Virus genome (UHGV): UHGV-0207574
Source: a virus
Length of the DNA: 16,650 bases
Strand: one strand, 5' to 3'
Shown here: positions 1 to 13,754 of the stretch, one piece after another
Layout: every line of letters starts with the position of its first letter
Numbering within the stretch: position 1 is the first letter of the stretch
Translations under genes and position numbers: made by a program
Notes under the pieces: generated by a model
The model's database searches: none
What the model was told of the DNA's origin: nothing
What the model saw: only the letters and a program-made list of their open reading frames with translations

Positions 1-73
1 GTTCACTTTAGCTCATCTCATAGCTGAAATTTTGCCGCTATTTTTTTACACTTAAGCGAAAAATGAGGTGATT

Positions 74-1009
74 ATGGAACCCCTTCGTGAAATAAGAAAT
101 CGGCTGCTTAACGGCTGGCAATTATCAAAAATGCATACTTTTGAAGTGGCTGCCAGGCATCAGTCCTTCGCCCTGGCGGCAGAGGAATTGTCGCTGAGCC
201 CCAGTGCGGTAAGTCACCGTATCAATCAGCTGGAAGAAGAATTGGGCATTCAGTTGTTTGTTCGTTCCCATCGCAAAGTGGAATTAACGCACGAGGGGAA
301 ACGTGTTTATTGGGCGCTAAAATCGTCGCTGGATACCCTGAACCAGGAAATTCTTGATATCAAAAATCAGGAGTTATCGGGAACGTTAACTCTGTATTCC
401 CGGCCCTCTATCGCCCAATGCTGGTTGGTGCCCGCATTAGGTGACTTTACACGCCGGTATCCGTCTATTTCGCTCACCGTGCTCACTGGTAATGACAACG
501 TCAATCTGCAACGTGCCGGAATCGATTTGGCGATCTACTTTGATGATGCGCCGTCAGCGCAACTCACTCATCACTTTCTGATGGATGAAGAAATCCTGCC
601 AGTATGTAGCCCGGAATACGCTCAAAGACATGCTTTAACCAACACGGTAATTAACCTGTGTCACTGTACGTTGCTCCATGACAGACAGGCATGGAGCAAC
701 GACTCCGGTACGGATGAATGGCATAGTTGGGCGCAACATTATGCGGTTAATTTGCCGACATCTTCTGGAATTGGCTTTGATCGTTCTGATTTAGCTGTTA
801 TTGCCGCGATGAATCATATTGGGGTGGCGATGGGAAGAAAACGCCTGGTACAAAAAAGGCTTGCCAGTGGTGAGCTCGTCGCGCCGTTTGGCGATATGAC
901 GGTGAAATGCCATCAGCATTATTACATCACCACATTACCGGGCAGGCAGTGGCCAAAAATTGAAGCGTTTATTATCTGGCTAAGAGAACAGGTAAAAACC
1001 ACTTCATAA
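74..1009 (+). CDS. dsdC: LysR-family transcriptional activator of D-serine utilisation (DsdC)
   Basis: The ORF track frame 68..1009 begins with GTG; the ATG at 74 follows a GAGG RBS and gives MEPLREIRNRLLNGWQLSKMHTFEVAARHQSFALAAEELSLSPSAVSHRINQLEEELG, an N-terminal LysR HTH followed by a substrate-binding domain. The sequence matches my recollection of E. coli DsdC. Stop TAA at 1007-1009. Confidence 0.88.
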   Translation: MEPLREIRNRLLNGWQLSKMHTFEVAARHQSFALAAEELSLSPSAVSHRINQLEEELGIQLFVRSHRKVELTHEGKRVYWALKSSLDTLNQEILDIKNQELSGTLTLYSRPSIAQCWLVPALGDFTRRYPSISLTVLTGNDNVNLQRAGIDLAIYFDDAPSAQLTHHFLMDEEILPVCSPEYAQRHALTNTVINLCHCTLLHDRQAWSNDSGTDEWHSWAQHYAVNLPTSSGIGFDRSDLAVIAAMNHIGVAMGRKRLVQKRLASGELVAPFGDMTVKCHQHYYITTLPGRQWPKIEAFIIWLREQVKTTS

Positions 1010-1103
1010 TGAATAAAACCACGAGTTCCTGGTGTGCCTTATTCGGCCTGCTAGTTCGAATTTAATTTACGGTTTTTATGTGGTTTTAGGGATAAACACA
1101 AGG

Positions 1104-1119
1104 ATGGTGTCCCCTGCAG
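1104..1119. repeat. att-right core (direct repeat of the argW 3' end)
   Basis: ATGGTGTCCCCTGCAG is identical to 13679-13694; flanking sequence diverges immediately on both sides. Confidence 0.8.
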
Positions 1120-1176: not shown

Positions 1177-1198
1177 TATTTTACCCGCTATTTTACCC
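1177..1198 (+). repeat. Two direct copies of TATTTTACCC (1177-1186, 1189-1198) next to att-right and the torI 3' end; candidate recombination-protein binding sites
   Basis: Seen directly. The same octamer (as GGGTAAAA / TTTTACCC) recurs three times beside the integrase start at the other prophage end (13519-13563). Confidence 0.4.
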
Positions 1199-1393
1199 AT
1201 TGGCGCGGCTTAAGAGCTTATTTTTGAATTCACAATGGTCACGATATAACCATCTTGCTCGCCCGTGGATAACTTTGGCTTTTGGTAGGTCGCCGGACTT
1301 AATCCGGTCGTAGATGAAGGTTTTACCAAAGCCAGTATCGGCCATGATGAATTTCAAATCAACCAGTGAATCAGGCTGTAGTTCGTGTTGCAT
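1193..1393 (-). CDS. torI: Excisionase / recombination directionality factor TorI (also described as an inhibitor of the Tor response regulator)
   Basis: 66-aa ORF MQHELQPDSLVDLKFIMADTGFGKTFIYDRIKSGDLPKAKVIHGRARWLYRDHCEFKNKLLSRANG, a winged-helix Xis/AlpA-like small protein. Matches my recollection of KplE1 TorI. Sits next to att-right. Confidence 0.85.
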   Translation of the reverse strand: MQHELQPDSLVDLKFIMADTGFGKTFIYDRIKSGDLPKAKVIHGRARWLYRDHCEFKNKLLSRANG

Positions 1394-1412
1394 GAGTGCT
1401 ATCTCCGAATAT

Positions 1413-1428
1413 GGAATCGAACCTGCAA
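1413..1428. other. Internal 16-bp fragment identical to the argW variable-loop/T-arm region
   Basis: GGAATCGAACCTGCAA at 1413-1428 is identical to 13694-13709 inside the argW gene. It lies ~20 bp upstream of the torI start codon and ~300 bp inside the prophage. Confidence 0.5.
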
Positions 1429-1517
1429 ATCAGGCAATAAAAAGCCGCATTGATGCAGCAATGGTAGGTCTGGATATCTTGAGAAATGAACAGGCCTCAT
1501 CGAGTGTGAGACTGTGG

Positions 1518-1862
1518 TTAGTCCTTGCGTAGCTCGCTGATTCTTCTGTAAGTCTCTGGTGCTTTGTTTCCGTGTATCTTCATTTCAGACTTCAACAGAG
1601 CAACGAGGGAATCCCATTCGTTGAGGATGCCTTTGAATGCCGGAACGCGCTTTGCAACCTTGTCGAATGAATCTCTGATTTCTGGAATCTGCTCAACAAG
1701 CGCAACGCATCGCCGGAAATCTGCTGCGTCATGGGGAGCGCCGAAGTGATGACCATAGATATTCTTTTTCAGTCCACATGCGATTGAGGCAAGAGTTGCG
1801 CTACTTATGCCAACATCGCCAGTCGATTGCCATTTCAAAACCTTCATAGCCAAATCTGACAT
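1518..1862 (-). CDS. Hypothetical phage protein (114 aa)
   Basis: ORF track frame 1518..1889. The ATG at 1862 has a GGAGA RBS (GGAGACAAGAA ATG) and gives MSDLAMKVLKWQ...; the longer start at 1889 would lie inside a terminator hairpin. I do not recognise a family. Confidence 0.55.
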   Translation of the reverse strand: MSDLAMKVLKWQSTGDVGISSATLASIACGLKKNIYGHHFGAPHDAADFRRCVALVEQIPEIRDSFDKVAKRVPAFKGILNEWDSLVALLKSEMKIHGNKAPETYRRISELRKD

Positions 1863-1872
1863 TTCTTGTCTC

Positions 1873-1898
1873 CAATAAAAAACCGCCATCAGGCGGCT
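1873..1898 (-). terminator. Putative intrinsic terminator on the minus strand (GCCGCC-TGAT-GGCGG followed by TTTTTTATT)
   Basis: Minus-strand sequence CAAGCCGCCTGATGGCGGTTTTTTATTGGAG: a short GC stem, 4-nt loop and T-tract, immediately upstream of the RBS of the 1518..1862 ORF. An A-tract on the other side means it could act in both directions. Confidence 0.4.
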
Positions 1899-1962
1899 TG
1901 GTGTTCTTTCAGTTCTTCAATTCGAATATTGGTTACATTGTTTTCATATATGAATAAATAAA

Positions 1963-2142
1963 TTAGCTTTTTTCGTTGCCTTCGCGTTCTTTATTAATTT
2001 TGACAAACTCGTTTTTACCACGCTCTCCAAATGCGTCTTTAGAGTCGTTGTATCCGCAATCGCAGCACACATAATCACCAGACCATCCACGCATTGTTTT
2101 TTCTTTTGCAATATTTCCAGAACCGCATTTTGGACAAGACAT
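1963..2142 (-). CDS. Small zinc-ribbon protein (CPKC...CCDCG), 59 aa
   Basis: The ATG at 2142 is preceded by GGAGG (GGAGGTAGTGAT ATG) and gives MSCPKCGSGNIAKEKTMRGWSGDYVCCDCGYNDSKDAFGERGKNEF..., with two Cys pairs spaced as in a zinc ribbon. The ORF track start at 2175 is probably an overextension. Confidence 0.55.
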   Translation of the reverse strand: MSCPKCGSGNIAKEKTMRGWSGDYVCCDCGYNDSKDAFGERGKNEFVKINKEREGNEKS

Positions 2143-2238
2143 ATCACTACCTCCAAAGCATGAGTGAGATGACAACGTAACATTGATTGGAGATTAACAA
2201 TAGATTGCTGATGTAAAAGATATGTATAAGCTTCGCTT

Positions 2239-3066
2239 TCAAAGTGGAGGCTCTGGTAGCGGCATCCAGTGAGTTACGTCATCCAAGATATTTCCTGATA
2301 AATACGTGAAAGCTCTATATTTTTTGTAATCAATTGGATTTACAACCCAGTTCCAATATGCTGCCACGATTTCACCTTGACTAAATGCCAGTAACATTTT
2401 GGTGTCTTCCGGCATTCTCTCACTACAGCTTATCCAACCATCTGGAATTACCGGAGAGTTGCCAGATGGCTCGTTCAACTTGTAAGTTTGGCTTACAGGT
2501 TCGGCACCATGAAGCATGGCGTCGCTCCGCTCTATGCCATCCAGCGCGATTCGCAGTGCCTGAATTGTGGTAGAGCTATCGTTTGGGGCTATTCCATATC
2601 GCTCGAATACAGCTAAATGGTTGCGCATAATCTCAGGCGTAAGCTCTTTGTAAGCATAAGCAAGAGGCTCTGATGCATTATCCGGCACAACCGACGCAGG
2701 CGCGGCAGCATAAACAGGAATAACGTCCGCTTCACGAACCTGCATTGCATAGGCAACGATGTTTGCTGCGCTTGGCGTGTTCTTTGCGATCTCAGCGATA
2801 TAAGCAAAACCGCCAACAGACGCCGTTAACGATTTACGCTCCAGTTCATCGAAAAGCGTCAGGCCATCTACTGGCTTTTGCTCCCGGTGCATTCTGGTTA
2901 TTTCTTCGAAAAGGATTTTGTGTGGCCGGCTGTAAAATGAGTCAGGCTTCAGCATCGCCAGAACTTTCTGGACGCGCTCACTGCTGTCATCATCCAGAAG
3001 CAATCCACCAATCACCGCCTGCTCTGCCTCGATGCTATGGGGCGGCGCATAAAAATTATCGGTCAT
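2239..3066 (-). CDS. Chimeric replication-module protein: DnaB-helicase N-terminal domain fused to an Ead/Ea22-like region and a DUF551-like C-terminus; no helicase ATPase core
   Basis: The ATG at 3066 gives MTDNFYAPPHSIEAEQAVIGGLLLDDD ... LTASVGGFAYIAEIAKNTPSAANIVAYAMQVREA, which closely resembles the primase-interacting N-terminal domain of DnaB (PHSIEAEQ and SVGGFAY..KNTPSAANI motifs). The C-terminus (WISCSERMPEDT ... VTHWMPLPEPPL) resembles DUF551. Start overlaps the stop of the upstream O-like gene by 11 nt. Confidence 0.7.
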   Translation of the reverse strand: MTDNFYAPPHSIEAEQAVIGGLLLDDDSSERVQKVLAMLKPDSFYSRPHKILFEEITRMHREQKPVDGLTLFDELERKSLTASVGGFAYIAEIAKNTPSAANIVAYAMQVREADVIPVYAAAPASVVPDNASEPLAYAYKELTPEIMRNHLAVFERYGIAPNDSSTTIQALRIALDGIERSDAMLHGAEPVSQTYKLNEPSGNSPVIPDGWISCSERMPEDTKMLLAFSQGEIVAAYWNWVVNPIDYKKYRAFTYLSGNILDDVTHWMPLPEPPL

Positions 3067-3946
3067 CGTGTTCACCCTCACGAACTTTCAGGTAGGTATT
3101 GTCGTTAAGCAGGAAATCAAATCCCTTTTTGTGCCAGACGGTTCCGCGTTGATGGTTTGGGCGTTCTTCGAACATCCATCGGCAATTTTCGCCTACGTAG
3201 ATCAAATAATTTCTCCAGTCCTGCATCGTGAACCCATGCCCGTCAAGCTGGCGGGTTATCACTCCGGCTTTGCGCCAGAACGTTCGGATCTGGTTTTTAC
3301 GCTTGTCATTCAGTGCGCGGATTCTTGGCGCTTCAGGAAGGATTTCGTGGTAAGCATCGACAACATCCTGACAGCTGACGGAAGGTTTTTTCTTGTCAGA
3401 CTTTTTGTCTGCTGTGGCACTCTCTAATACGTCAGTATTAGAGATATTATTTATATTATTGTTTATGGACAACCGTTGGACAACCGTTGGACAATCTCCG
3501 CTGAGAGCCGCGCCATTACTGGTGTTTGCGTTGGACAACCGTTGGACAACCGTTGGACAATTTTTTGCCTGAAAATCGTCATATTTAACGATTGTAAACA
3601 GGCTAAATTTCTTCCCCATCGAGCAAATATTAAGCATCCCTTTCGACTCAAAAGTCCGTAATAAGCTCCGAACTTTGTTGTCGGGGATGAATGTTTCTCT
3701 GACCAGCGACGGGCGTCCAGTTATCATCTGACCGCGATCAACAGTTATCGGACCGATATCCGTATTGACGACAGTAGATTCGTGATTAGCCTTGAGGATT
3801 AAGTGAAGCCAAAGATGTACTGCCTGAGAGTCCTTATAGAGCCTGCTGTCCATAAACTGGCGGTGTATAGAGACATACCCCATACTGGATGCCTCCTGAT
3901 GTTGTACAGGGTTATGCCTGTAATCAGCTAACTTAACGACGCCCAT
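3056..3946 (-). CDS. Replication initiator, lambda O-like, with the origin iterons inside the gene
   Basis: 296-aa ORF with an N-terminal region resembling the phage O origin-binding domain (HLWLHLILKANHES...). A central linker is encoded by tandem 11-bp repeats, giving the duplicated peptide CPTVVQRLSN. Translationally coupled to the downstream gene. Confidence 0.7.
   Translation of the reverse strand: MGVVKLADYRHNPVQHQEASSMGYVSIHRQFMDSRLYKDSQAVHLWLHLILKANHESTVVNTDIGPITVDRGQMITGRPSLVRETFIPDNKVRSLLRTFESKGMLNICSMGKKFSLFTIVKYDDFQAKNCPTVVQRLSNANTSNGAALSGDCPTVVQRLSINNNINNISNTDVLESATADKKSDKKKPSVSCQDVVDAYHEILPEAPRIRALNDKRKNQIRTFWRKAGVITRQLDGHGFTMQDWRNYLIYVGENCRWMFEERPNHQRGTVWHKKGFDFLLNDNTYLKVREGEHDDR
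3465..3560. repeat. Putative replication origin: six iterons (unit TTGGACAACCG) in two clusters of three (3465-3496, 3531-3560)
   Basis: Direct tandem repeats seen in the sequence, lying inside the O-like gene as lambda ori lies inside O. Next to them in the gene's direction is an AT-rich tract (3440-3464) and a perfect 9-bp inverted repeat CTCTAATAC-GTCA-GTATTAGAG (3422-3443). Confidence 0.7.
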
Positions 3947-4094
3947 GTTTCACTCCTGCTTTGGCTAGTCTGTAAACACCAACAAGGCGCTCTGCGAACG
4001 CCCTGTTATTTGCTGCGGCTACCACTAATCCCTCAGGTGAATCAGGGTGTCGAATCTCTTCTTTTTCCTGGTATTTCTTACGACGTTTTGTCAT
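3933..4094 (-). CDS. Small basic hypothetical protein (53 aa), not in the ORF track (below the length cutoff)
   Basis: The ATG at 4094 is preceded by AGGAG (ACAGGAGTAATT ATG) and gives MTKRRKKYQEKEEIRHPDSPEGLVVAAANNRAFAERLVGVYRLAKAGVKHGRR. Its 3' end overlaps the RBS and start of the O-like gene. Lies between the cII-like and O-like genes. Confidence 0.4.
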   Translation of the reverse strand: MTKRRKKYQEKEEIRHPDSPEGLVVAAANNRAFAERLVGVYRLAKAGVKHGRR

Positions 4095-4128
4095 AATTAC
4101 TCCTGTGGATTGATCCAGTCTTTCTACA

Positions 4129-4407
4129 TCAGGCCTCGAAGAATTCGCCGTTCTTCGGGGCTTTTTCTTTTGTCAGCATTCTGGCTACTTTCTTAGCCAG
4201 TTCCGCCAACTCCTCGTCTTCAACACCCCATTCAAGAACAGCAAGAAGCATTCCCATTTTGGGGATGAAGCTGTCTTTCCATCGCGAAATTTGCGATTCA
4301 TTAATTCCTAACGCGTCAGCAACCTTTCGCTGACCACGTACAGCAATTCGATTCAGGATGTTGCTTGTAATTGCATTCGCTTTCTTGCGAGTACTTGTAA
4401 GTTCCAT
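4129..4407 (-). CDS. CII-like transcriptional regulator (92 aa)
   Basis: The ATG at 4407 with an AGGAAA RBS gives MELTSTRKKANAITSNILNRIAVRGQRKVADALGINESQISRWKDSFIPKMGMLLAVLEWGVEDEELAELAKKVARMLT..., closely resembling lambda CII (GVDKSQISRWKRDWIPKFSMLLAVLEWGV). The ORF track frame extends upstream to 4494. Confidence 0.75.
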   Translation of the reverse strand: MELTSTRKKANAITSNILNRIAVRGQRKVADALGINESQISRWKDSFIPKMGMLLAVLEWGVEDEELAELAKKVARMLTKEKAPKNGEFFEA

Positions 4408-4463
4408 ATGTAAGTATTTCCTTAACAAATAAGAAGTTATGCGCATCAACTTATGCGCGTTGT

Positions 4464-4509
4464 ATTCCCGCATTTCGGCGGGAATGAGGACCATGACTGT
4501 TAAAGAGCG
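4464..4509 (-). promoter_or_regulatory. nutR-like antitermination site: boxA CGCTCTTTAACA (4498-4509) and a boxB-like hairpin (4464-4485)
   Basis: Minus strand reads CGCTCTTTAACA, a 12-nt spacer, then ATTCCCGC-CGAAAT-GCGGGAAT (8-bp stem, GAAA-containing loop). It sits between the cro fragment and the cII-like gene, as nutR does in lambda. Confidence 0.5.
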
Positions 4510-4515
4510 GTGTTA

Positions 4516-4614
4516 CTATTTGTTTTTCTTGTTGCTTGGGAAAGGACGAACTTCCTCTCCAATCACACTGCCATCAGGCTTTACCGTAAACGACGCTATA
4601 CAGCCAGATGGCAA
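4516..4614 (-). pseudogene. cro gene, 3' fragment only
   Basis: Minus-strand frame ending at stop 4516-4518 translates to ...CIASFTVKPDGSVIGEEVRPFPSNKKNK, matching the lambda Cro C-terminus (INADGSVYAEEVKPFPSNKKTTA). There is no N-terminal part and no in-frame start. Confidence 0.65.
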
Positions 4615-4730
4615 TCAACTGCGCAGTGCATGAGAAAAAGCCCGCTCTGATGTTCAGCCTTGAAATGCCAGGTGATCAGATACTGGAAAAACTGGTAGGG
4701 CAGAAGTCTGGTGTTAACCCGAATATTTTT
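4611..4730 (+). pseudogene. Fragment of a DnaB-family helicase core (region just after Walker A), on the plus strand
   Basis: The first ~40 codons of the ORF track frame 4608..5093 read AINCAVHEKKPALMFSLEMPGDQILEKLVGQKSGVNPNIF, resembling E. coli DnaB (AMNLCENAAMLQDKPVLIFSLEMPSEQIMMRSL). The rest of that frame looks like non-coding alt-frame sequence. Confidence 0.4.
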
Positions 4731-4759
4731 TACCTTCCGGCGACAAATGACGCTGATGA

Positions 4760-5281
4760 CGGCTACTCGGGGAAAACATCCTTTCCTGCGATACGGAGAA
4801 GAGTATCCGGGAGCGATTTTCTGTTTACCAGGTGGCGGGGCAGCGTGCCGGAAACGACGATGATTTCGGTGAGGCCACCACCACCGCGCTGCGGGCCCGC
4901 ACAGAGGACGCATTTATTGCCCGTTACCGTCCGATGTATATCAGGCAGACAGGGCAGGCTACGGGGGCAGGCTGTATTGCCCGTGCGGACTTTGAAGCCC
5001 GGCAACGGGCGGCGCGGACGGATGAAACCACCTATGTGGTGCAGGGCTGGCGACAGGGTAACGGTACGCTGTGGCAGCCCAACCAGCGGGTGATTGTCTT
5101 CGATCCGGTCTGTGGTTTCGACAATACCGAACTGCTTGTCTCGGAAGTCACGTTTACTCAGGACCAGAATGGCACCCTGACGGAAATCCGTGTCGGCCCA
5201 CCTGATGCTTATCTGCCTGAACCCGAAGCCCCCGGCGCGCGGAAAAAGAAAAAAGCCAGAGTACAGGAGGACCCGTTCTGA
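4760..5281 (+). pseudogene. 5'-truncated baseplate-hub/tail gene (Mu gp44 / P2 gpD-like), C-terminal part
   Basis: The frame is open from the stop at 4757-4759 with only a GTG at 4832 as a possible start. Its stop overlaps the start of the downstream gpV-like gene (TGATG), and position and composition match the upstream member of a Mu-type baseplate cluster. Family assignment is by position, not recognised sequence. Confidence 0.45.
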
Positions 5282-5829
5282 TGAGGACGATTGAAGCCAT
5301 GCAGCGACAACTCCTCGGCCTGATTGGGCGGGCCGTGGTGAAAAGCATCAGTGCCGCCACGAAATGTCAGACCGTGGATGTGTCCCTGATTGCCGGTGAA
5401 CCCAAAGCCGGGATTGAACATCTTGAACCCTACGGTTTTACCGCAAGGGCAAACAGCGGTGCGGAAGCGGTGGTGTTGTTTCCGGATGGCGACCGTTCTC
5501 ATGCGGTGGTTGTTACGGTGTCGGACCGGCGTTACCGCCTGAAAGGGCTGCAGACGGGTGAGGTGGCTGTCTATGACGATCAGGGGCAGTCCGTGACGCT
5601 GACCCGGGAGGGGATCGTGGTGGACGGTGCAGGTAAAACGATCACGTTTCGCAATGCGCCCAGAGCACGTTTTGAAATGGACCTGGAAGTGACCGGACAG
5701 GTGAAAGACCTGTGCGACTCCGGCGGCACCACCATGTCAGCGATGCGGCTTGCCTATAACGGGCATCGTCACAGAGAGAACGGTCAGGGCAGTAACACCG
5801 ACAAACCTGATAAAGCGATGGAGGCATGA
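5281..5829 (+). CDS. Baseplate assembly/spike protein, gpV-like (Mu gp45-like)
   Basis: 182-aa ORF, translationally coupled on both sides, GC-rich, with a C-terminal DSGGTT motif that I recall from P2 gpV-type proteins. Confidence 0.65.
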   Translation: MRTIEAMQRQLLGLIGRAVVKSISAATKCQTVDVSLIAGEPKAGIEHLEPYGFTARANSGAEAVVLFPDGDRSHAVVVTVSDRRYRLKGLQTGEVAVYDDQGQSVTLTREGIVVDGAGKTITFRNAPRARFEMDLEVTGQVKDLCDSGGTTMSAMRLAYNGHRHRENGQGSNTDKPDKAMEA

Positions 5830-6254
5830 TGGTACTGTGGCTGACGGTGAACGGTAAACGCACCTGCGCCAGCGCACCGCTGGATCCGCTGACCCGCGCC
5901 GTGGTGATTTCCCTGTTTACCTGGCGGCGGGCGGAGCCTGATGACAACGCCGACGTCCCGATGGGATGGTGGGGGGATACCTGGCCTGCGGTACAGAATG
6001 ACCGTTACGGCTCCCGGCTGTGGCTGCTTCAGCGCAGCAAACTGACCAATCAGCTGGTGCAGACGGTAAGGGGGTATATCCGCGAATGTCTGCAATGGAT
6101 GATTGATGACGGCGTGGTGTCCCGTATTGATCTGGATATCCGCCGCACCGGGATTAATGAACTGGGTAACAGTATCACTCTCTGGCGTCGTGACGGACCG
6201 GTAATGATTTCTTTTGATGATCTGTGGAGTGCGATAACGCATGGCGGACAGTGA
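5826..6254 (+). CDS. Baseplate protein, phage GP46 family (gpW-like)
   Basis: 142-aa ORF with start overlapping the upstream stop (ATGA). Size and position between the V-like and J-like genes are typical of a Mu-type baseplate cluster. Confidence 0.6.
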   Translation: MMVLWLTVNGKRTCASAPLDPLTRAVVISLFTWRRAEPDDNADVPMGWWGDTWPAVQNDRYGSRLWLLQRSKLTNQLVQTVRGYIRECLQWMIDDGVVSRIDLDIRRTGINELGNSITLWRRDGPVMISFDDLWSAITHGGQ

Positions 6255-7299
6255 ATTTCAGCGCCCGACGCTGGCAGAAAATATCAGTATGCTCCGTAAC
6301 GATTTATTCGCCAGGCTGGACGTCAGCGACACGCTCCGGCGCATGGATGAAGACGTGCGGGCAAAGGTGTATGCGGCGGCGCTGCATACGGTTTACGGGT
6401 ACATCGATTATCTGGCAATGAACATGCTGCCTGACCTGTGCGATGAGTCCTGGCTGGCGCGACATGCTGCGATGAAACGGTGTCCGCGCAAGGGGGCCAC
6501 GGCTGCCAGCGGGTATATGCGCTGGGAAGGTGTCAGCGATGGCCTGAAGGTGACCGCCGGGAGTGTTATTCAGCGCGATGACCTGGTTCAGTACACGGCA
6601 ACTGCCGATGCAACCAGCTCCGGTGGTGTCCTGCGCGTGCCGATCGCCTGCTCAAGTTCAGGCGCGGTCGGTAACGCTGACGACGGTACGTCATTAATCC
6701 TGGTCACGCCGGTGAATGGTCTGCCGTCTTCCGGTGTGGCTGACACCCTGACAGGCGGATTTGATACTGAAGATCTGGAAACGTGGCGCGCCCGCATCAT
6801 TGAGCGGTATTACTGGACGCCGCAGGGCGGGGCTGACGTGGACTATGTCGTCTGGGCTAAAGAAGTGCCCGGCATTACCCGCGCATGGACATACCGACAC
6901 TGGATGGGAACGGGGACTGTCGGTGTGATGATTGCCAGCAGTGACCTGATTAACCCCATTCCGGAAGAATCAACGGAAACGGCAGCAAGACAACATATCG
7001 GGCCACTGGCCCCGGTGGCAGGCTCTGATTTGTATGTATTCAGGCCGGTGGCGCACAAAGTGGATTTTCATATCCGCGTGACGCCGGACACACCGGAAAT
7101 ACGGGCTGCCATTACCGCAGAGTTGCGTTCATTCCTGCTGCGTGATGGTTATCCGCAGGGAGAGCTGAAGGTATCGCGTATCAGTGAAGCGATTTCCGGT
7201 GCGAACGGGGAATACAGCCATCAGTTGCTTGCTCCGGCGGACAATATCTCCATTGCAAAAAATGAACTGGCGGTTCTGGGGACGATTTCATGGACGTGA
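6241..7299 (+). CDS. Baseplate J-like protein (Mu gp47-like)
   Basis: 352-aa ORF in the conserved V-W-J-I order, overlapping its neighbours. Confidence 0.65.
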
Positions 7300-7874
7300 C
7301 AAACGATGATTACATCCGTCTGTTGTCGGCACTGCTGCCGCCCGGTCCGGCGTGGTCAGCCAGCGATCCGGCGATTGCCGGTGCGGCACCGTCATTAACT
7401 CGTGTTCATCAGCGTGCGGATGCCCTGATGCGGGAGCTGGATCCGCGCACCACCACCGAACTGATAAATCGCTGGGAGCGTCTGTGCGGCCTGCCGGATG
7501 AATGTATTCCCGCAGGGACACAGACCCTTCGCCAGCGTCAGCAACGGCTGGATGCGAAGGTTAACCTGGCGGGTGGCATCAACGAGGATTTTTATCTTGC
7601 ACAGCTTGCTGCCCTGGGCAGACCAGATGCCACCATCACGCGATACGACAAAAGCACGTTCACCTGCTCATCGGCCTGTACTGACGCTGTGAATGCGCCG
7701 GAATGGCGGTATTACTGGCAGGTCAACATGCCAGCCGCCGCCAACACCACCTGGATGACATGTGGCGATCCCTGTGATTCCGCACTGCGTATCTGGGGTG
7801 ACACCGTTGTCGAGTGTGTGCTTAACAAACTCTGCCCGTCGCATACCTACGTAATTTTTAAATATCCGGAGTAA
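7290..7874 (+). CDS. Tail protein, Mu gp48 / YmfQ-like (P2 gpI position)
   Basis: 194-aa ORF directly downstream of the J-like gene and upstream of the tail-fibre gene. Confidence 0.6.
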
Positions 7875-7877
7875 TCC

Positions 7878-8519
7878 ATGCATCGTATAGACACGAAAAC
7901 CGCGCAGAAGGATAAGTTCGGCGCGGGTAAGAACGGTTTTACCCGTGGTAACCCCCAGACCGGCACGCCTGCCACCGATCTGGATGATGACTACTTTGAC
8001 ATGTTGCAGGAGGAGCTTTGCAGCGTTGTGGAGGCCTCCGGTGCCAGCCTGGAGAAGGGGCGGCATGACCAGCTGCTTACCGCGCTTCGTGCGCTGCTGT
8101 TAAGCCGCAAGAATCCGTTTGGCGATATCAAATTGGACGGCACGGTGCAAAAGGCTCTCGAAAACCTTGGTTTGGGAGAAGCGGCTAAAAGAAATGTAGG
8201 GACAGGGGCGAATCAGATACCTGATATGGGTAGCTTCACGCTTTCTGTTTCAGGTACTGGATATCAAAAATTGCCATCCGGTTTAATTATTCAATGGGGG
8301 CCAATTGATGTTCCGCTGACGTCTCAGGACACAGTAACCTATTTTCCGATTGCATTTCCGAATAGATGTCTGCGGGTATTTGCGACTCAGGATTACACTC
8401 CCGGCAGTGCAAATGTTGGCTATATAGCTTGTGCCGGTTATAACCAGGACCCGGTGAAATTTATTTCCAGAGCAGGCGTACCCGGTCTCGGTGCTTCATT
8501 TTTCGCATTAGGGTGTTAA
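7878..8519 (+). CDS. Tail fibre protein (short; constant N-terminal part plus variable C-terminal part)
   Basis: GGAG RBS. The N-terminus [74 protein letters not shown] is the conserved tail-fibre N-terminal region of Mu/P2-type fibres. GC content drops sharply after ~8180. Confidence 0.7.
8155..8180. promoter_or_regulatory. Candidate relic serine-invertase crossover site (gix/hix-like) inside the tail-fibre gene
   Basis: CTCTCGAAAACC-TT-GGTTTGGGAGAA is an imperfect 26-bp dyad with the AAACC-NN-GGTTT core typical of Gin/Hin/Pin sites as I recall them. It lies at the constant/variable junction of the fibre and coincides with the GC drop. Confidence 0.35.
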
Positions 8520-8545
8520 TTTCTTTTAACTTTATGGAGTGAAAA

Positions 8546-8986
8546 ATGAATCACATATATTCCGCGACTACAAACTCTTTCTATCCCTTGGAGATGAAAG
8601 AGGATTACACGCAAGCTGGCTCATGGCCAGATGATGCTGTTGAAGTTGATGAGCAAGTGTATATTGAGTTTTCCGGATTACCGCCGAAAGGAAAAATCCG
8701 TATCGCTGGAGAAAATGGTTTTCCTGCATGGTCTGAAATTCCACCACCAACACATGAGGAACAGATTGCTGCAGCCGAACTGAAAAAGCAGCAATTGATT
8801 AATCAGGCCAACGATTATATGAACAGTAAACAATGGGCTGGTAAAGCGGCTATTGGTCGTCTGAAAGGTGAGGAACTGGCGCAATATAATTTGTGGCTGG
8901 ATTATCTGGACGCACTGGAGCTGGTCGATACTTCCAGTGCGCCAGATATTGAATGGCCTACTCCTCCGGCAGTTCAGGCCAGATGA
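8546..8986 (+). CDS. Tail fibre assembly protein (Tfa/U-like)
   Basis: 146-aa ORF with a GGAG RBS, ending ...SSAPDIEWPTPPAVQAR, a typical Tfa C-terminus. Immediately downstream of the tail-fibre gene. Confidence 0.7.
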   Translation: MNHIYSATTNSFYPLEMKEDYTQAGSWPDDAVEVDEQVYIEFSGLPPKGKIRIAGENGFPAWSEIPPPTHEEQIAAAELKKQQLINQANDYMNSKQWAGKAAIGRLKGEELAQYNLWLDYLDALELVDTSSAPDIEWPTPPAVQAR

Positions 8987-9260
8987 CATCCGGCGCGGTG
9001 CTGGTATCTGTTGCCGTCACCGCGTCAATGTAATCCAGCACAGTGTTAAGTCGGGAGGTCTCTGCCTGCATCAGCTTCCGCCCAGCCCGTAATTTCAGTT
9101 GAATCAGACTAATGGAAGCCATTGCAGTATCAATCAGTGACTGACGCTGTGCTTCTGCCGCGTCTACTGCGGCGTGATGCTGTGCCTCAGTATCGGTCAC
9201 CCATTTCTCACCATCCCATTTATCGTATGGCGTTAATGGGGCGATAGTCGCGGGACGCAT
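8958..9260 (-). pseudogene. Second tail fibre assembly gene (C-terminal half only), convergent with and overlapping the first
   Basis: Minus-strand frame MRPATIAPLTPYDKWDGEKWVTD...TSTAPDVIWPELPEE has a Tfa-like C-terminus. It is blocked upstream by a stop at 9318-9320, so at most ~120 codons remain. Overlaps the 3' end of the plus-strand tfa by ~29 bp. Confidence 0.5.
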
Positions 9261-9284
9261 ACAAACATAACCCCTGGATGTTAT

Positions 9285-9566
9285 GTGTCTATCGAGAATC
9301 AAAGTGGAAGTCCTTATGTTAAGTATAAGACAGGAATCACTTATAACGATAATCAGTTAGTATATGTATCTATCACTGTTGATGATAATATCAGCACTTG
9401 GTTCTGGAGGGGGTTTGTTGTGGGCAATGATGCATTTAAGTTATCGTCTGCAGATAGAGGAGATATTACAATAAACAACGAATCAGGGCATTTGATAGTC
9501 AATACCGCAATTCTATCAGGAGATATAGTCACTCTAAGAGGAGGAGAAATTAGGTTGGTATTATAG
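9285..9566 (+). other. Orphan ORF (93 codons, GTG start, no internal Met), possibly a 3' gene fragment
   Basis: VSIENQSGSPYVKYKTGITYNDNQ...DIVTLRGGEIRLVL is rich in N/T/S/V/I, like the beta-rich tip of a fibre. There is no ATG and only a weak RBS. It lies in low-GC DNA between the tfa remnant and gtrC. Confidence 0.25.
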
Positions 9567-9570
9567 CTTG

Positions 9571-9592
9571 TGCGCGCCATGATTGGCGCGCA
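9571..9592. repeat. Perfect GC-rich palindrome TGCGCGCCA-TGAT-TGGCGCGCA between the convergent stop codons of the orphan ORF and gtrC
   Basis: 9-bp perfect inverted repeat with a 4-nt loop and no adjacent T-tract on either strand. Could be a terminator-like hairpin or a protein-binding palindrome. Confidence 0.45.
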
Positions 9593-9600
9593 ATTTAAAC

Positions 9601-12360: not shown

Positions 12361-13518
12361 TCACTCCACCTTCTCATCAAGCCAGTCCGCCCACCATTGC
12401 ATCATTTCTCTGCGTTTATCGAGATACTGAGCATGGTTGTAAATCCCACGCACAGATCCGCCGTTTGCATGTGCCAGTTGCACTTCAATAGCGTCAGCAG
12501 GCCATTCGTGCTCGTTCATAATCGTGCTGAATTCATGCCTGAATCCGTGACCGCTTTCCAGACCCTCATAGCCGATTTGTTTGATCACAAGCAGTACCGC
12601 GTTCTCGCAGATTGGCTTCTTCTTATCGTTGCGCCCGGCAAAAACAAACTCTGAGACTGGTTTGGTGATGGAGCTTAGCGTAGTGAGAAGTTCAACTACC
12701 TGGTCTGACATAGGAACCACATGAATTTTGCGTCCTTTCATCACACTGGCGTCGATGGTGATAATCCTATTTTCAAAATCGACGTTCTTCCATAGCATGG
12801 AACGAAGCTCTTTCGTTCTTAGGGCTGTGTAGCGTAAAACTTTGGTCGCAATGAGCGATACGATACTTCCTGAAAATGTTGCCAGTGCTTTGTTGAATGC
12901 CGGGATCTGGTCTGCAGGAAGAAACGGGAAGTTCTTCTTGCGGTATCCCTTCATGGCGTCAGCAAGGTCAGGTGCCGGGTTATATTTAGCCCTTCCGGTG
13001 ACAATAGCGTAACGGAAAACCTCGCCGCATCTTCTGCGTGCTTTGTTGGCTCGTTCCATTGCACCGCGATCTTCAAACCTGCGGATTACTTCCAGCAGTT
13101 GCATCGGCTCAATATCCTGAATTTCAAGGCCGCCAATGATAGGTAAAATGTCGTCGTCAAACATTTTGGCAAGTTCAGTTGCATACCCTACTGACCATAC
13201 TTGCTTCTTGTGCTCGTACCATTCCTTGTAAATCGCACTAAAGGAATTGTTGTTAGACGAAGCCTTTTTCGCCTTTACAGGATCGATGCCAACCGAGATG
13301 TCTTTCCTCGCAGTCCATGCTTTATCCCTTGCCTCCTGCAAAGTCATAAGCGGATATTTTCCGACGGTCAGGATTTTCTCCTTACCGTCAATCTTGTAGC
13401 GAAGCTGCCATACCTTTTTCCCTGACACAGGGACATAAAGGTACAGGCCATTACCATCGAGAAGGCGGTATGGTTTTTCTTTCGGCTTTGCTGCTTCAAT
13501 CTGCTTAACGGTGAGCAT
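12361..13518 (-). CDS. intS: Tyrosine-family site-specific integrase (IntS-like)
   Basis: From the ATG at 13518 (MLTVKQIEAAKPKEKPYRLLDGNGLYLYV...) the protein has a P4-type integrase N-terminus and a C-terminal catalytic domain (...HGFRHEFSTIMNEH...GIYNHAQYL). The ORF track starts at an upstream GTG at 13554. Adjacent to the tRNA. Confidence 0.85.
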   Translation of the reverse strand: MLTVKQIEAAKPKEKPYRLLDGNGLYLYVPVSGKKVWQLRYKIDGKEKILTVGKYPLMTLQEARDKAWTARKDISVGIDPVKAKKASSNNNSFSAIYKEWYEHKKQVWSVGYATELAKMFDDDILPIIGGLEIQDIEPMQLLEVIRRFEDRGAMERANKARRRCGEVFRYAIVTGRAKYNPAPDLADAMKGYRKKNFPFLPADQIPAFNKALATFSGSIVSLIATKVLRYTALRTKELRSMLWKNVDFENRIITIDASVMKGRKIHVVPMSDQVVELLTTLSSITKPVSEFVFAGRNDKKKPICENAVLLVIKQIGYEGLESGHGFRHEFSTIMNEHEWPADAIEVQLAHANGGSVRGIYNHAQYLDKRREMMQWWADWLDEKVE

Positions 13519-13563
13519 GGGTAAAAATCCGGTGGGTAAAATTATTTTATCCACTTTTTACCC
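13519..13563. repeat. Octamer repeats GGGTAAAA (13519-13526, 13534-13541) and inverted TTTTTACCC (13555-13563) at the integrase 5' end; candidate arm-type or RDF binding sites
   Basis: Seen directly. The same motif occurs twice next to att-right (1177-1198). Confidence 0.4.
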
Positions 13564-13678
13564 GTCATGGAGTGCGGCTGTCAACGATCTGAAGCGAACC
13601 ATGACGAACTGTAAATCTACGGAATGCTTGATATTCAGGGGATTTTGCGGACTGGTACGGATGGGAGCGAACTGATAA

Positions 13679-13694
13679 ATGGTGTCCCCTGCAG
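13679..13694. repeat. att-left core overlapping the 3' end of argW
   Basis: ATGGTGTCCCCTGCAG, identical to 1104-1119. Confidence 0.8.
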
Positions 13695-13754
13695 GAATCG
13701 AACCTGCAATTAGCCCTTAGGAGGGGCTCGTTATATCCATTTAACTAAGAGGAC
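13680..13754 (-). tRNA. argW: tRNA-Arg (anticodon CCU)
   Basis: Minus-strand 75-nt sequence GTCCTCTTAGTTAAATGGATATAACGAGCCCCTCCTAAGGGCTAATTGCAGGTTCGATTCCTGCAGGGGACACCA. It has the acceptor stem, an anticodon loop CU-CCU-AA, a GGTTCGATTCC T-arm and an encoded CCA end. Confidence 0.9.

Follow-up and report, generated by a model that had tools for sequence, protein, structure and literature searches.

The repeated octamer TTTTACCC (GGGTAAAA on the other strand), which occurs close to both ends of the prophage, very probably represents the arm-type sites recognised by IntS, the heterobivalent tyrosine integrase of a recombination module of the KplE1/HK620/Sf6 type located at argW, an assignment based on the comparison of sequences and on the placement of published site maps. 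The window, that is, the whole stretch of 16,650 nucleotides that was analysed, corresponds to the argW locus of E. coli, occupied by a KplE1/CPS-53-type prophage, in the reverse orientation to that of K-12. Publications from 2001 to 2012 had already covered, for identical or near-identical sequences, the module with its split layout, the sites of IntS and TorI and the negative control of intS by both proteins. The element itself is a mosaic, defective remnant that retains an intact recombination module.

The order of features in the window is dsdC (68-1009, plus strand, from the RefSeq annotation and the ORF), the attR core, torI, the cargo, intS, the attL arm, the second core and argW, with yfdC and mlaA past argW. 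The tRNA-Arg(CCT) gene argW, which is the integration target, was located with ARAGORN at 13754..13680 on the minus strand. The attL core (13679-13694) is the 3' end of argW and corresponds to the published core, and the attR core (1104-1119, ATGGTGTCCCCTGCAG) is a 16-nt duplicate of this 3' end, detected as a direct repeat, and the reverse complement of the 16-nt core CTGCAGGGGACACCAT published for KplE1 (PMC2951348). The attL arm (13519-13678) extends between intS and its core. The torI gene (1393..1193, minus strand), annotated as such in RefSeq, encodes the recombination directionality factor (RDF, excisionase) of 66 amino acids, identical to both K-12 TorI and HkaC of HK620, and its residues 1-66 match the 'Tor inhibition protein' of PDB entry 1Z4H (E = 6.6e-43). 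The intS gene (12361..13518, minus strand) codes for a tyrosine integrase of 385 amino acids and is identical at the DNA level to K-12 intS; the Pfam domain Arm-DNA-bind_3 (PF13356) covers residues 2-86 (E = 2.1e-25) and is followed by Phage_int_M and Phage_integrase. The 220-bp attL fragment and intS are base-for-base the same as in K-12 strain C600, and the attR fragment carries three substitutions with respect to K-12 (1132, 1135 and 1173), none of them in the octamers or the core.

The torI gene adjoins the attR core and intS adjoins the attL arm, with the whole prophage between them, as the preliminary description had indicated and as both the ORFs and the RefSeq annotation agree. When the arms were joined at the core, a 576-nt sequence was obtained that runs from torI through the P arm, core, TorI sites, promoter and P' arm to intS, with both genes co-directional. 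This rebuilt attP is found contiguous over its full length, at 96.7-98.3% identity, in IME10, Sf6, HK633, HK620 and others. The recombination genes thus lie at opposite prophage ends because attP sits between torI and intS in the phage form. The split int/xis layout with attP between the genes, correctly attributed in the preliminary description to KplE1, has been stated for KplE1, HK620, Sf6 and Kapi1 (PMC8787464; also PMC2951348). KplE1 (CPS-53) of E. coli K-12 shares with the window the argW site, 16-nt core, attL, intS, TorI protein, TorI sites, -35 and -10 boxes and octamer places, and differs in the three attR substitutions outside the octamers and in its cargo. In the P22-like phages HK620, Sf6, IME10 and HK633 the contiguous xis-attP-int segment is 97-98% identical to the joined arms, whereas CUS-3 and Kapi1, whose records start or stop at the att site, for that reason gave only half-length matches to the rebuilt attP. 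All six are complete viable podoviruses, in contrast to the defective mosaic remnant present in the window. The same attL arm was found in 1,900 of 5,426 complete E. coli genomes, and a viral-contig search carried out with the IntS N-terminal alignment returned 80 loci, all with N-termini 100% identical.

An exact search for the octamer yielded six matches window-wide against 0.59 expected, a number that was reached in none of 200 shuffles. Two of these copies are on the plus strand of the P arm (attR), the core-proximal one at 1179-1186 and the core-distal one at 1191-1198, and the latter contains the last codon of torI (Gly66) and its stop codon. Three others belong to the P' arm: a plus-strand copy at 13556-13563, which reads GGGTAAAA on the intS-sense strand and overlaps the -10 box of the intS promoter (PintS), and two inverted minus-strand copies at 13534-13541 and 13519-13526, the last one reading TTTTACCC on the intS-sense strand and ending one base ahead of the intS ATG (13518..13516). 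These five copies are the putative IntS arm-type sites. They correspond to the two copies near attR and the three at 13519-13563 that had been noticed previously, with the attL range unchanged and the attR start moved from 1177 to 1179, where the first copy begins. In the 281 bp of prophage-side att arms five octamers are present against about 0.01 expected (Poisson P(≥5) = 8e-13), and none of 20,000 shuffles of the arms reached five. The octamers are distinct from the core, all of them (two in the P arm, three exact and one degenerate in the P' arm) lie on the prophage side of the cores, and they are absent from attB.

The sixth exact match (7937-7944, plus strand) is away from the att arms, within the tail-fibre ORF 7878-8519, and has an inverted one-mismatch partner at 7925-7932 in the same ORF (GGGTAAGA-ACGG-TTTTACCC). 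It was considered as a secondary site and rejected, as it stands alone as an exact copy, within coding sequence, and 0.59 copies are expected in the window by chance, and it is most likely the result of chance plus coding constraint.

Published data from K-12 were placed on the window. The attL of K-12 KplE1 contains two blocks with five TorI sites in all (GTTCG, GATCG and GTCCG), three arm-type sites for IntS (P'1-P'3), each with TAAA, and PintS with -35 TTGACA and -10 TAaAAa, the -10 box being overlapped by P'1 (PMC2951348). In the window, the -35 box TTGACA is at 13584..13579 and the -10 box TAAAAA at 13560..13555, both on the minus strand, the former being invariant in the attP alignment described below. 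The octamer at 13556-13563 is P'1, because it is the only copy that overlaps the -10 box and holds its TAAA; the remaining octamers also contain TAAA/TTTA. Mapping of the pentamers on the minus strand located I5 (GATCG, 13585-13589), I4 (GTTCG, 13595-13599) and I3 (GTTCG, 13605-13609), which are 10 bp apart, as well as I2 (GTCCG, 13648-13652) and I1 (GTTCG, 13668-13672), with I5 adjoining the -35 box. When the published K-12 coordinates were converted relative to the intS ATG at 2464565, the segment 2464472-2464499 (I3;4;5) fell at window 13611-13584 and the segment 2464409-2464436 (I1;2) at 13674-13647, in agreement with the pentamer positions and with the published separations of 2 nt (I3;4;5) and 12 nt (I1;2). 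The octamers contain no TorI pentamer, none of them lies within 13584-13674 and none overlaps I1-I5. The published map has three P' sites and the sequence contains three exact copies plus one degenerate copy; the assignment of the attR pair as P-arm sites and the choice of P'2 and P'3 among the attL copies are inferred from sequence logic. IntS site mapping and binding for K-12 have reportedly been described by Panis et al. (J Biol Chem 2007, 282:21798 and Virology 2010, 404:41).

The primers used to prepare the in vitro excision substrates (PMC3509656, PMC2951348) delimit an attL fragment at 13495-13714 and a 135-bp attR fragment at 1082-1216, so that the minimal functional excision substrates hold all five exact octamers, and the attR substrate stops just beyond the second attR octamer. 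The attR-XbaI primer as published (GGTTTTAGGGATAAACACACAAGGATG, window 1082-1108) has an extra CA with respect to the window and to K-12 C600 (…AAACACAAGGATG), which probably reflects either a printing error or a mismatch that was tolerated.

The octamers are also conserved among relatives. An attP alignment was made with six sequences from about three lineages (the rebuilt attP, HK620, two Klebsiella phages and two Erwinia phages; 76-79% identity overall), in which the octamers, core, TorI pentamers and -35 box stand out as invariant islands. In the octamers 35 of 40 columns are invariant, against 51 of 160 in the other non-coding sequence (Fisher p = 1.2e-10), although conservation could be inflated in the two octamers that touch coding signals (the torI stop and the intS start). 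The copies at 13519-13526 and 13556-13563 are invariant in all six attPs, the copy at 13534-13541 is conserved at seven of eight positions (TTTACCC), and the conserved heart of the word is GGGTAAA. In the more distant Salmonella phages g341c and S.Inf 5-2, whose Int has 61.5% identity overall and 54% in its N-terminal part, both the GTTC-type sites and the -35 box are preserved, and the octamer positions in both arms are occupied by GGGCATAAA-type words. This change of word with the GTTC-type sites in place indicates two independent classes of sites.

An unbiased repeat search upstream of int revealed the same layout with other words in AchV4 of Achromobacter (TGTTGGCCT), S1 of Stenotrophomonas (TGGGGGTAT) and YeP4 of Yersinia (ACCGGATAA). 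The geometry common to g341c, P4, AchV4, S1 and YeP4 consists of a first pair of direct repeats, then about 200-220 bp that span the core, a second pair of direct repeats and an inverted copy that ends 0-6 nt ahead of the int ATG. Six elements thus have six words at the same positions. The identities of the Int N-terminal domains are 97, 87, 82, 82, 54 and 45%, and the word is kept at 82% or more and changed at 54% and 45%. Fixed positions with a word that changes together with the integrase are the signature of integrase arm-type sites. The P4-type repeat layout was not seen in the Klebsiella phage Kp4865-2 (33% identity), and therefore this attP architecture is not universal among distant relatives.

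Satellite P4 provides the closest annotated parallel for the geometry, since its GenBank record X51522 includes 'attP arm sequence repeats' with the word GGGGGCAYA. Two direct repeats are placed 77 and 65 bp before the core in P4 and 79 and 67 bp in the window, and two direct repeats follow 113 bp after the core in P4 and 116 bp in the window, with an inverted repeat that abuts the int ATG in P4. The window conforms to this P4-type architecture, with the degenerate copy at 13545-13552 filling the position of the second direct P' repeat. The P4 integrase is of the same type (Arm-DNA-bind_3), with 35% identity overall and 45% in the N-terminus, but the arm word and the core of P4 differ from those of the KplE1-type module. 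Its tRNA target is leuX, unlike argW. For HK620, the GenBank record already annotates octamer pairs as 'attP' repeats, which, in coordinates of the HK620 locus and with the sequences read from the HK620 row of the attP alignment, correspond to the two P-arm copies (502-524, TGGGTAAAATAGCGGGTAAAATA), to P'1 plus the degenerate copy (712-733, CGGGTAAAAAGTGGATAAAATA) and to the two inverted copies (733-758, AATTTTACCCACCGGATTTTTACCCA). The motif assignment, which the preliminary description offered as its own inference, is right but not new, given these repeats and the P' arm-type sites in the KplE1 papers.

Three other explanations of the octamers were weighed. The preliminary description left the choice between arm-type Int sites and RDF sites, and binding of TorI to the octamers would be in line with RDF sites typically being short repeats in att arms and with the location of two copies next to torI and three next to intS. 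Nevertheless, the published TorI sites GTTCG/GATCG/GTCCG lie at 13585-13672 without overlapping any octamer, the five cooperative TorI sites have been described on attL only, yet two octamers are in attR, and in g341c and S.Inf 5-2 the octamer word changes to GGGCATAAA as the GTTC-type sites stay. Published mutagenesis also contradicts this explanation, which is very unlikely. As octamers and TorI sites are separate classes of sites, the RDF alternative was set aside, and the Int option is the one favoured by the P'1 match, the conservation and the co-variation.

The octamers could also be promoter elements, A-tract bending elements or sites for host factors (-10-like, IHF or Fis), considering that one copy overlaps the PintS -10 box, that a second candidate promoter, ATGACG-16-AATAAT, lies among the copies at positions annotated in Sf6, and that the word is A/T-rich at one end. 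Against this, the attR copies are at the 3' end of torI, a place where a promoter would not be anticipated, and no promoter-like site is present in 1090-1540. A scan of the whole window with the strict IHF consensus (WATCARNNNNTTR) gave no match, and no IHF site was therefore assigned. P4 and KplE1 both inhabit E. coli K-12, and as they have different words (GGGGGCAYA and GGGTAAAA, respectively) at the same positions in this shared host, the word is not a host-factor site; an explanation based on promoter or host-factor elements is scarcely credible. A chance cluster of an A/T-rich word, or a by-product of coding constraint, would agree with the chance-like exact copy at 7937 in the tail-fibre ORF and with the two att copies that touch coding signals, but this is effectively refuted by the number of octamers in the arms (five against about 0.01 expected, P = 8e-13), by their conservation as islands across genera and by a geometry that is kept while the words co-vary within the family. 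The octamers are thus best regarded as IntS arm-type sites.

A one-mismatch search also revealed a degenerate octamer, TTTTATCC (GGATAAAA on the intS-sense strand), at 13545-13552 on the plus strand, which was missed in the preliminary description. It lies among the attL copies, 11 bp from the copy that overlaps the -10 box, and falls inside an 'attP' repeat_region of HK620. At this position the Klebsiella phages have GAGTAAAA and the Erwinia phages GAGT-AAA with a one-base alignment gap. The degenerate copy is the positional equivalent of the second direct P' repeat in P4, g341c, AchV4, S1 and YeP4, and by its position and sequence it is a probable candidate for a fourth P' arm-type site. Whether GGATAAAA is a real fourth P' site, so that the int-proximal arm would consist of two head-to-head pairs instead of the three published sites, is a more doubtful proposal, which we put forward only tentatively.

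With the octamers as IntS arm-type sites, the module would work as follows. In the phage form a single contiguous attP region runs from torI to intS: torI is followed by the P arm, which has GGGTAAAA twice in direct orientation, then by the 16-nt core, the five TorI sites and the P' arm, the order in the P' arm being GGGTAAAA, GGATAAAA and then two inverted TTTTACCC copies. Crossover at the core splits attP, leaving torI and the P arm in attR, and intS with the P' arm and the TorI sites in attL. According to the lambda/P4 paradigm, the N-terminal domain of IntS would bind the octamers and its catalytic domain the core, bridging arm and core in an intasome; for excision, attL and attR would be bridged in the way known from lambda and P4, and the TorI sites carried by attL would steer the reaction in this direction. 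IntS at the copy that overlaps the -10 box represses its own gene, and TorI beside the -35 box exerts a second repression, both effects having been published for the identical K-12 sequence.

The integrase of lambda is likewise heterobivalent, its N-terminal domain contacting arm words that recur to either side of the core. The lambda arm sites (P1, P2 and P'1-P'3) are divided between the arms as roughly two and three. The int and xis genes of lambda are neighbours and are co-transcribed, and its Xis sites are located on the P arm (attR), whereas in the KplE1-type module the two genes are separated by attP, the int-proximal arm (attL) carries the RDF sites, and intS is transcribed from an autoregulated promoter of its own within attL.

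Concerning the control of intS, PintS is repressed about five-fold by IntS and by TorI (PMC2951348). IntS represses itself because the P' arm overlaps the intS promoter. In reporter assays only P'1, which overlaps the -10 box, was implicated in repression by IntS, single mutations of the other P' sites caused no derepression, and altered IntS binding is mentioned for P'1 mutants (PMC2951348). TorI represses through I4 and I5 beside the -35 box, and mutation of I4 or I5 abolishes this repression (PMC2951348). The autoregulation of intS by proteins bound in attL, as proposed in the preliminary description, is therefore established in the literature for the identical K-12 sequence, with the qualification that among the P' sites only P'1 is implicated in the effect of IntS and that TorI acts through its own sites I4/I5. 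Excision in vitro shows a narrow optimum of IntS concentration (PMC2951348). In P4, int is also negatively regulated by Int and by the RDF Vis, although Vis has been proposed to act on the mRNA and TorI on DNA (PMC2951348).

A second sigma-70-like promoter candidate for intS, ATGACG-16-AATAAT, is present at 13568..13541 on the minus strand. It coincides with the -35/-10 positions annotated in the Sf6 int record X59553, and overlaps the first, degenerate and second P' copies. Two start sites of intS are reported in PMC2951348, and this candidate might explain the second. A generic promoter scan found this candidate and did not recover the published -10 box TAAAAA, because the scanner demands a T at position 6.

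Outside the recombination module the cargo is not that of K-12 KplE1: K-12 accounts for just 61% of the window, and a coverage of 80% is reached by the two best genomes. The cargo (1400-9600) includes, on the minus strand, a truncated DnaB-like helicase ORF, an O-like initiator and a CII-like activator (4494..4129), and after this lambdoid segment baseplate and tail-fibre genes follow on the plus strand. The ORF 3946..3056 matches PHROG 345 ('replication initiation O-like') and contains 11-bp direct repeats (TGGACAACCGT) in two clusters (3466-3506 and 3521-3572), which look like an ordinary lambdoid origin with iterons in the initiator gene.

Upstream of torI, the segment 1413-1428 (TTGCAGGTTCGATTCC on the minus strand) is an exact 16-nt copy of positions 46-61 of the argW tRNA (T-arm), that is, of window 13694-13709, which borders on the att core and overlaps it by one base. 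This copy is in the tRNA orientation about 20 nt upstream of the torI ATG, so that the 3' 31 nt of the tRNA are all present in the phage module, with an interruption of about 294 bp that comprises torI and the P arm. HK620 has a 17-nt version, located in a promoter whose annotation includes a cII site, and just GTTCGATTCC is preserved in g341c. The TorI pentamer GTTCG is part of the window copy, which may either descend from a longer attP homology in an ancestor or be a site for autoregulation by TorI; a chance origin is unlikely, the probability of such an exact 16-nt match being roughly estimated at about 5e-4. A terminator-like hairpin, GCTGCATCAATGCGGC followed by TTTTTATTGC, is located upstream of torI at 1459..1444 on the minus strand, and directly after it the sequence TTGC-N5-TTGC (1437..1425, minus strand) appears, which in the HK620 record is the cII-binding site of a 'phage integration' promoter directed through the RDF gene and attP towards int.

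The motif can be labelled with confidence as IntS arm-type sites and the RDF alternative can be dropped, and such an annotation rule for the attL arm would apply widely, given its frequency among complete E. coli genomes. If the fourth P' site were real, the family-wide presence of an inverted arm site that ends 0-6 nt ahead of the int ATG would imply that Int bound downstream of the transcription start aids the control of int, for example as a roadblock, in addition to the site at the -10 box. The six positionally equivalent but differing arm words could yield a recognition code for the Arm-DNA-bind_3 domain, and the conserved attP geometry together with the element-specific word offers a simple route to the arm-type sites of P4-like integrases in unannotated prophages.
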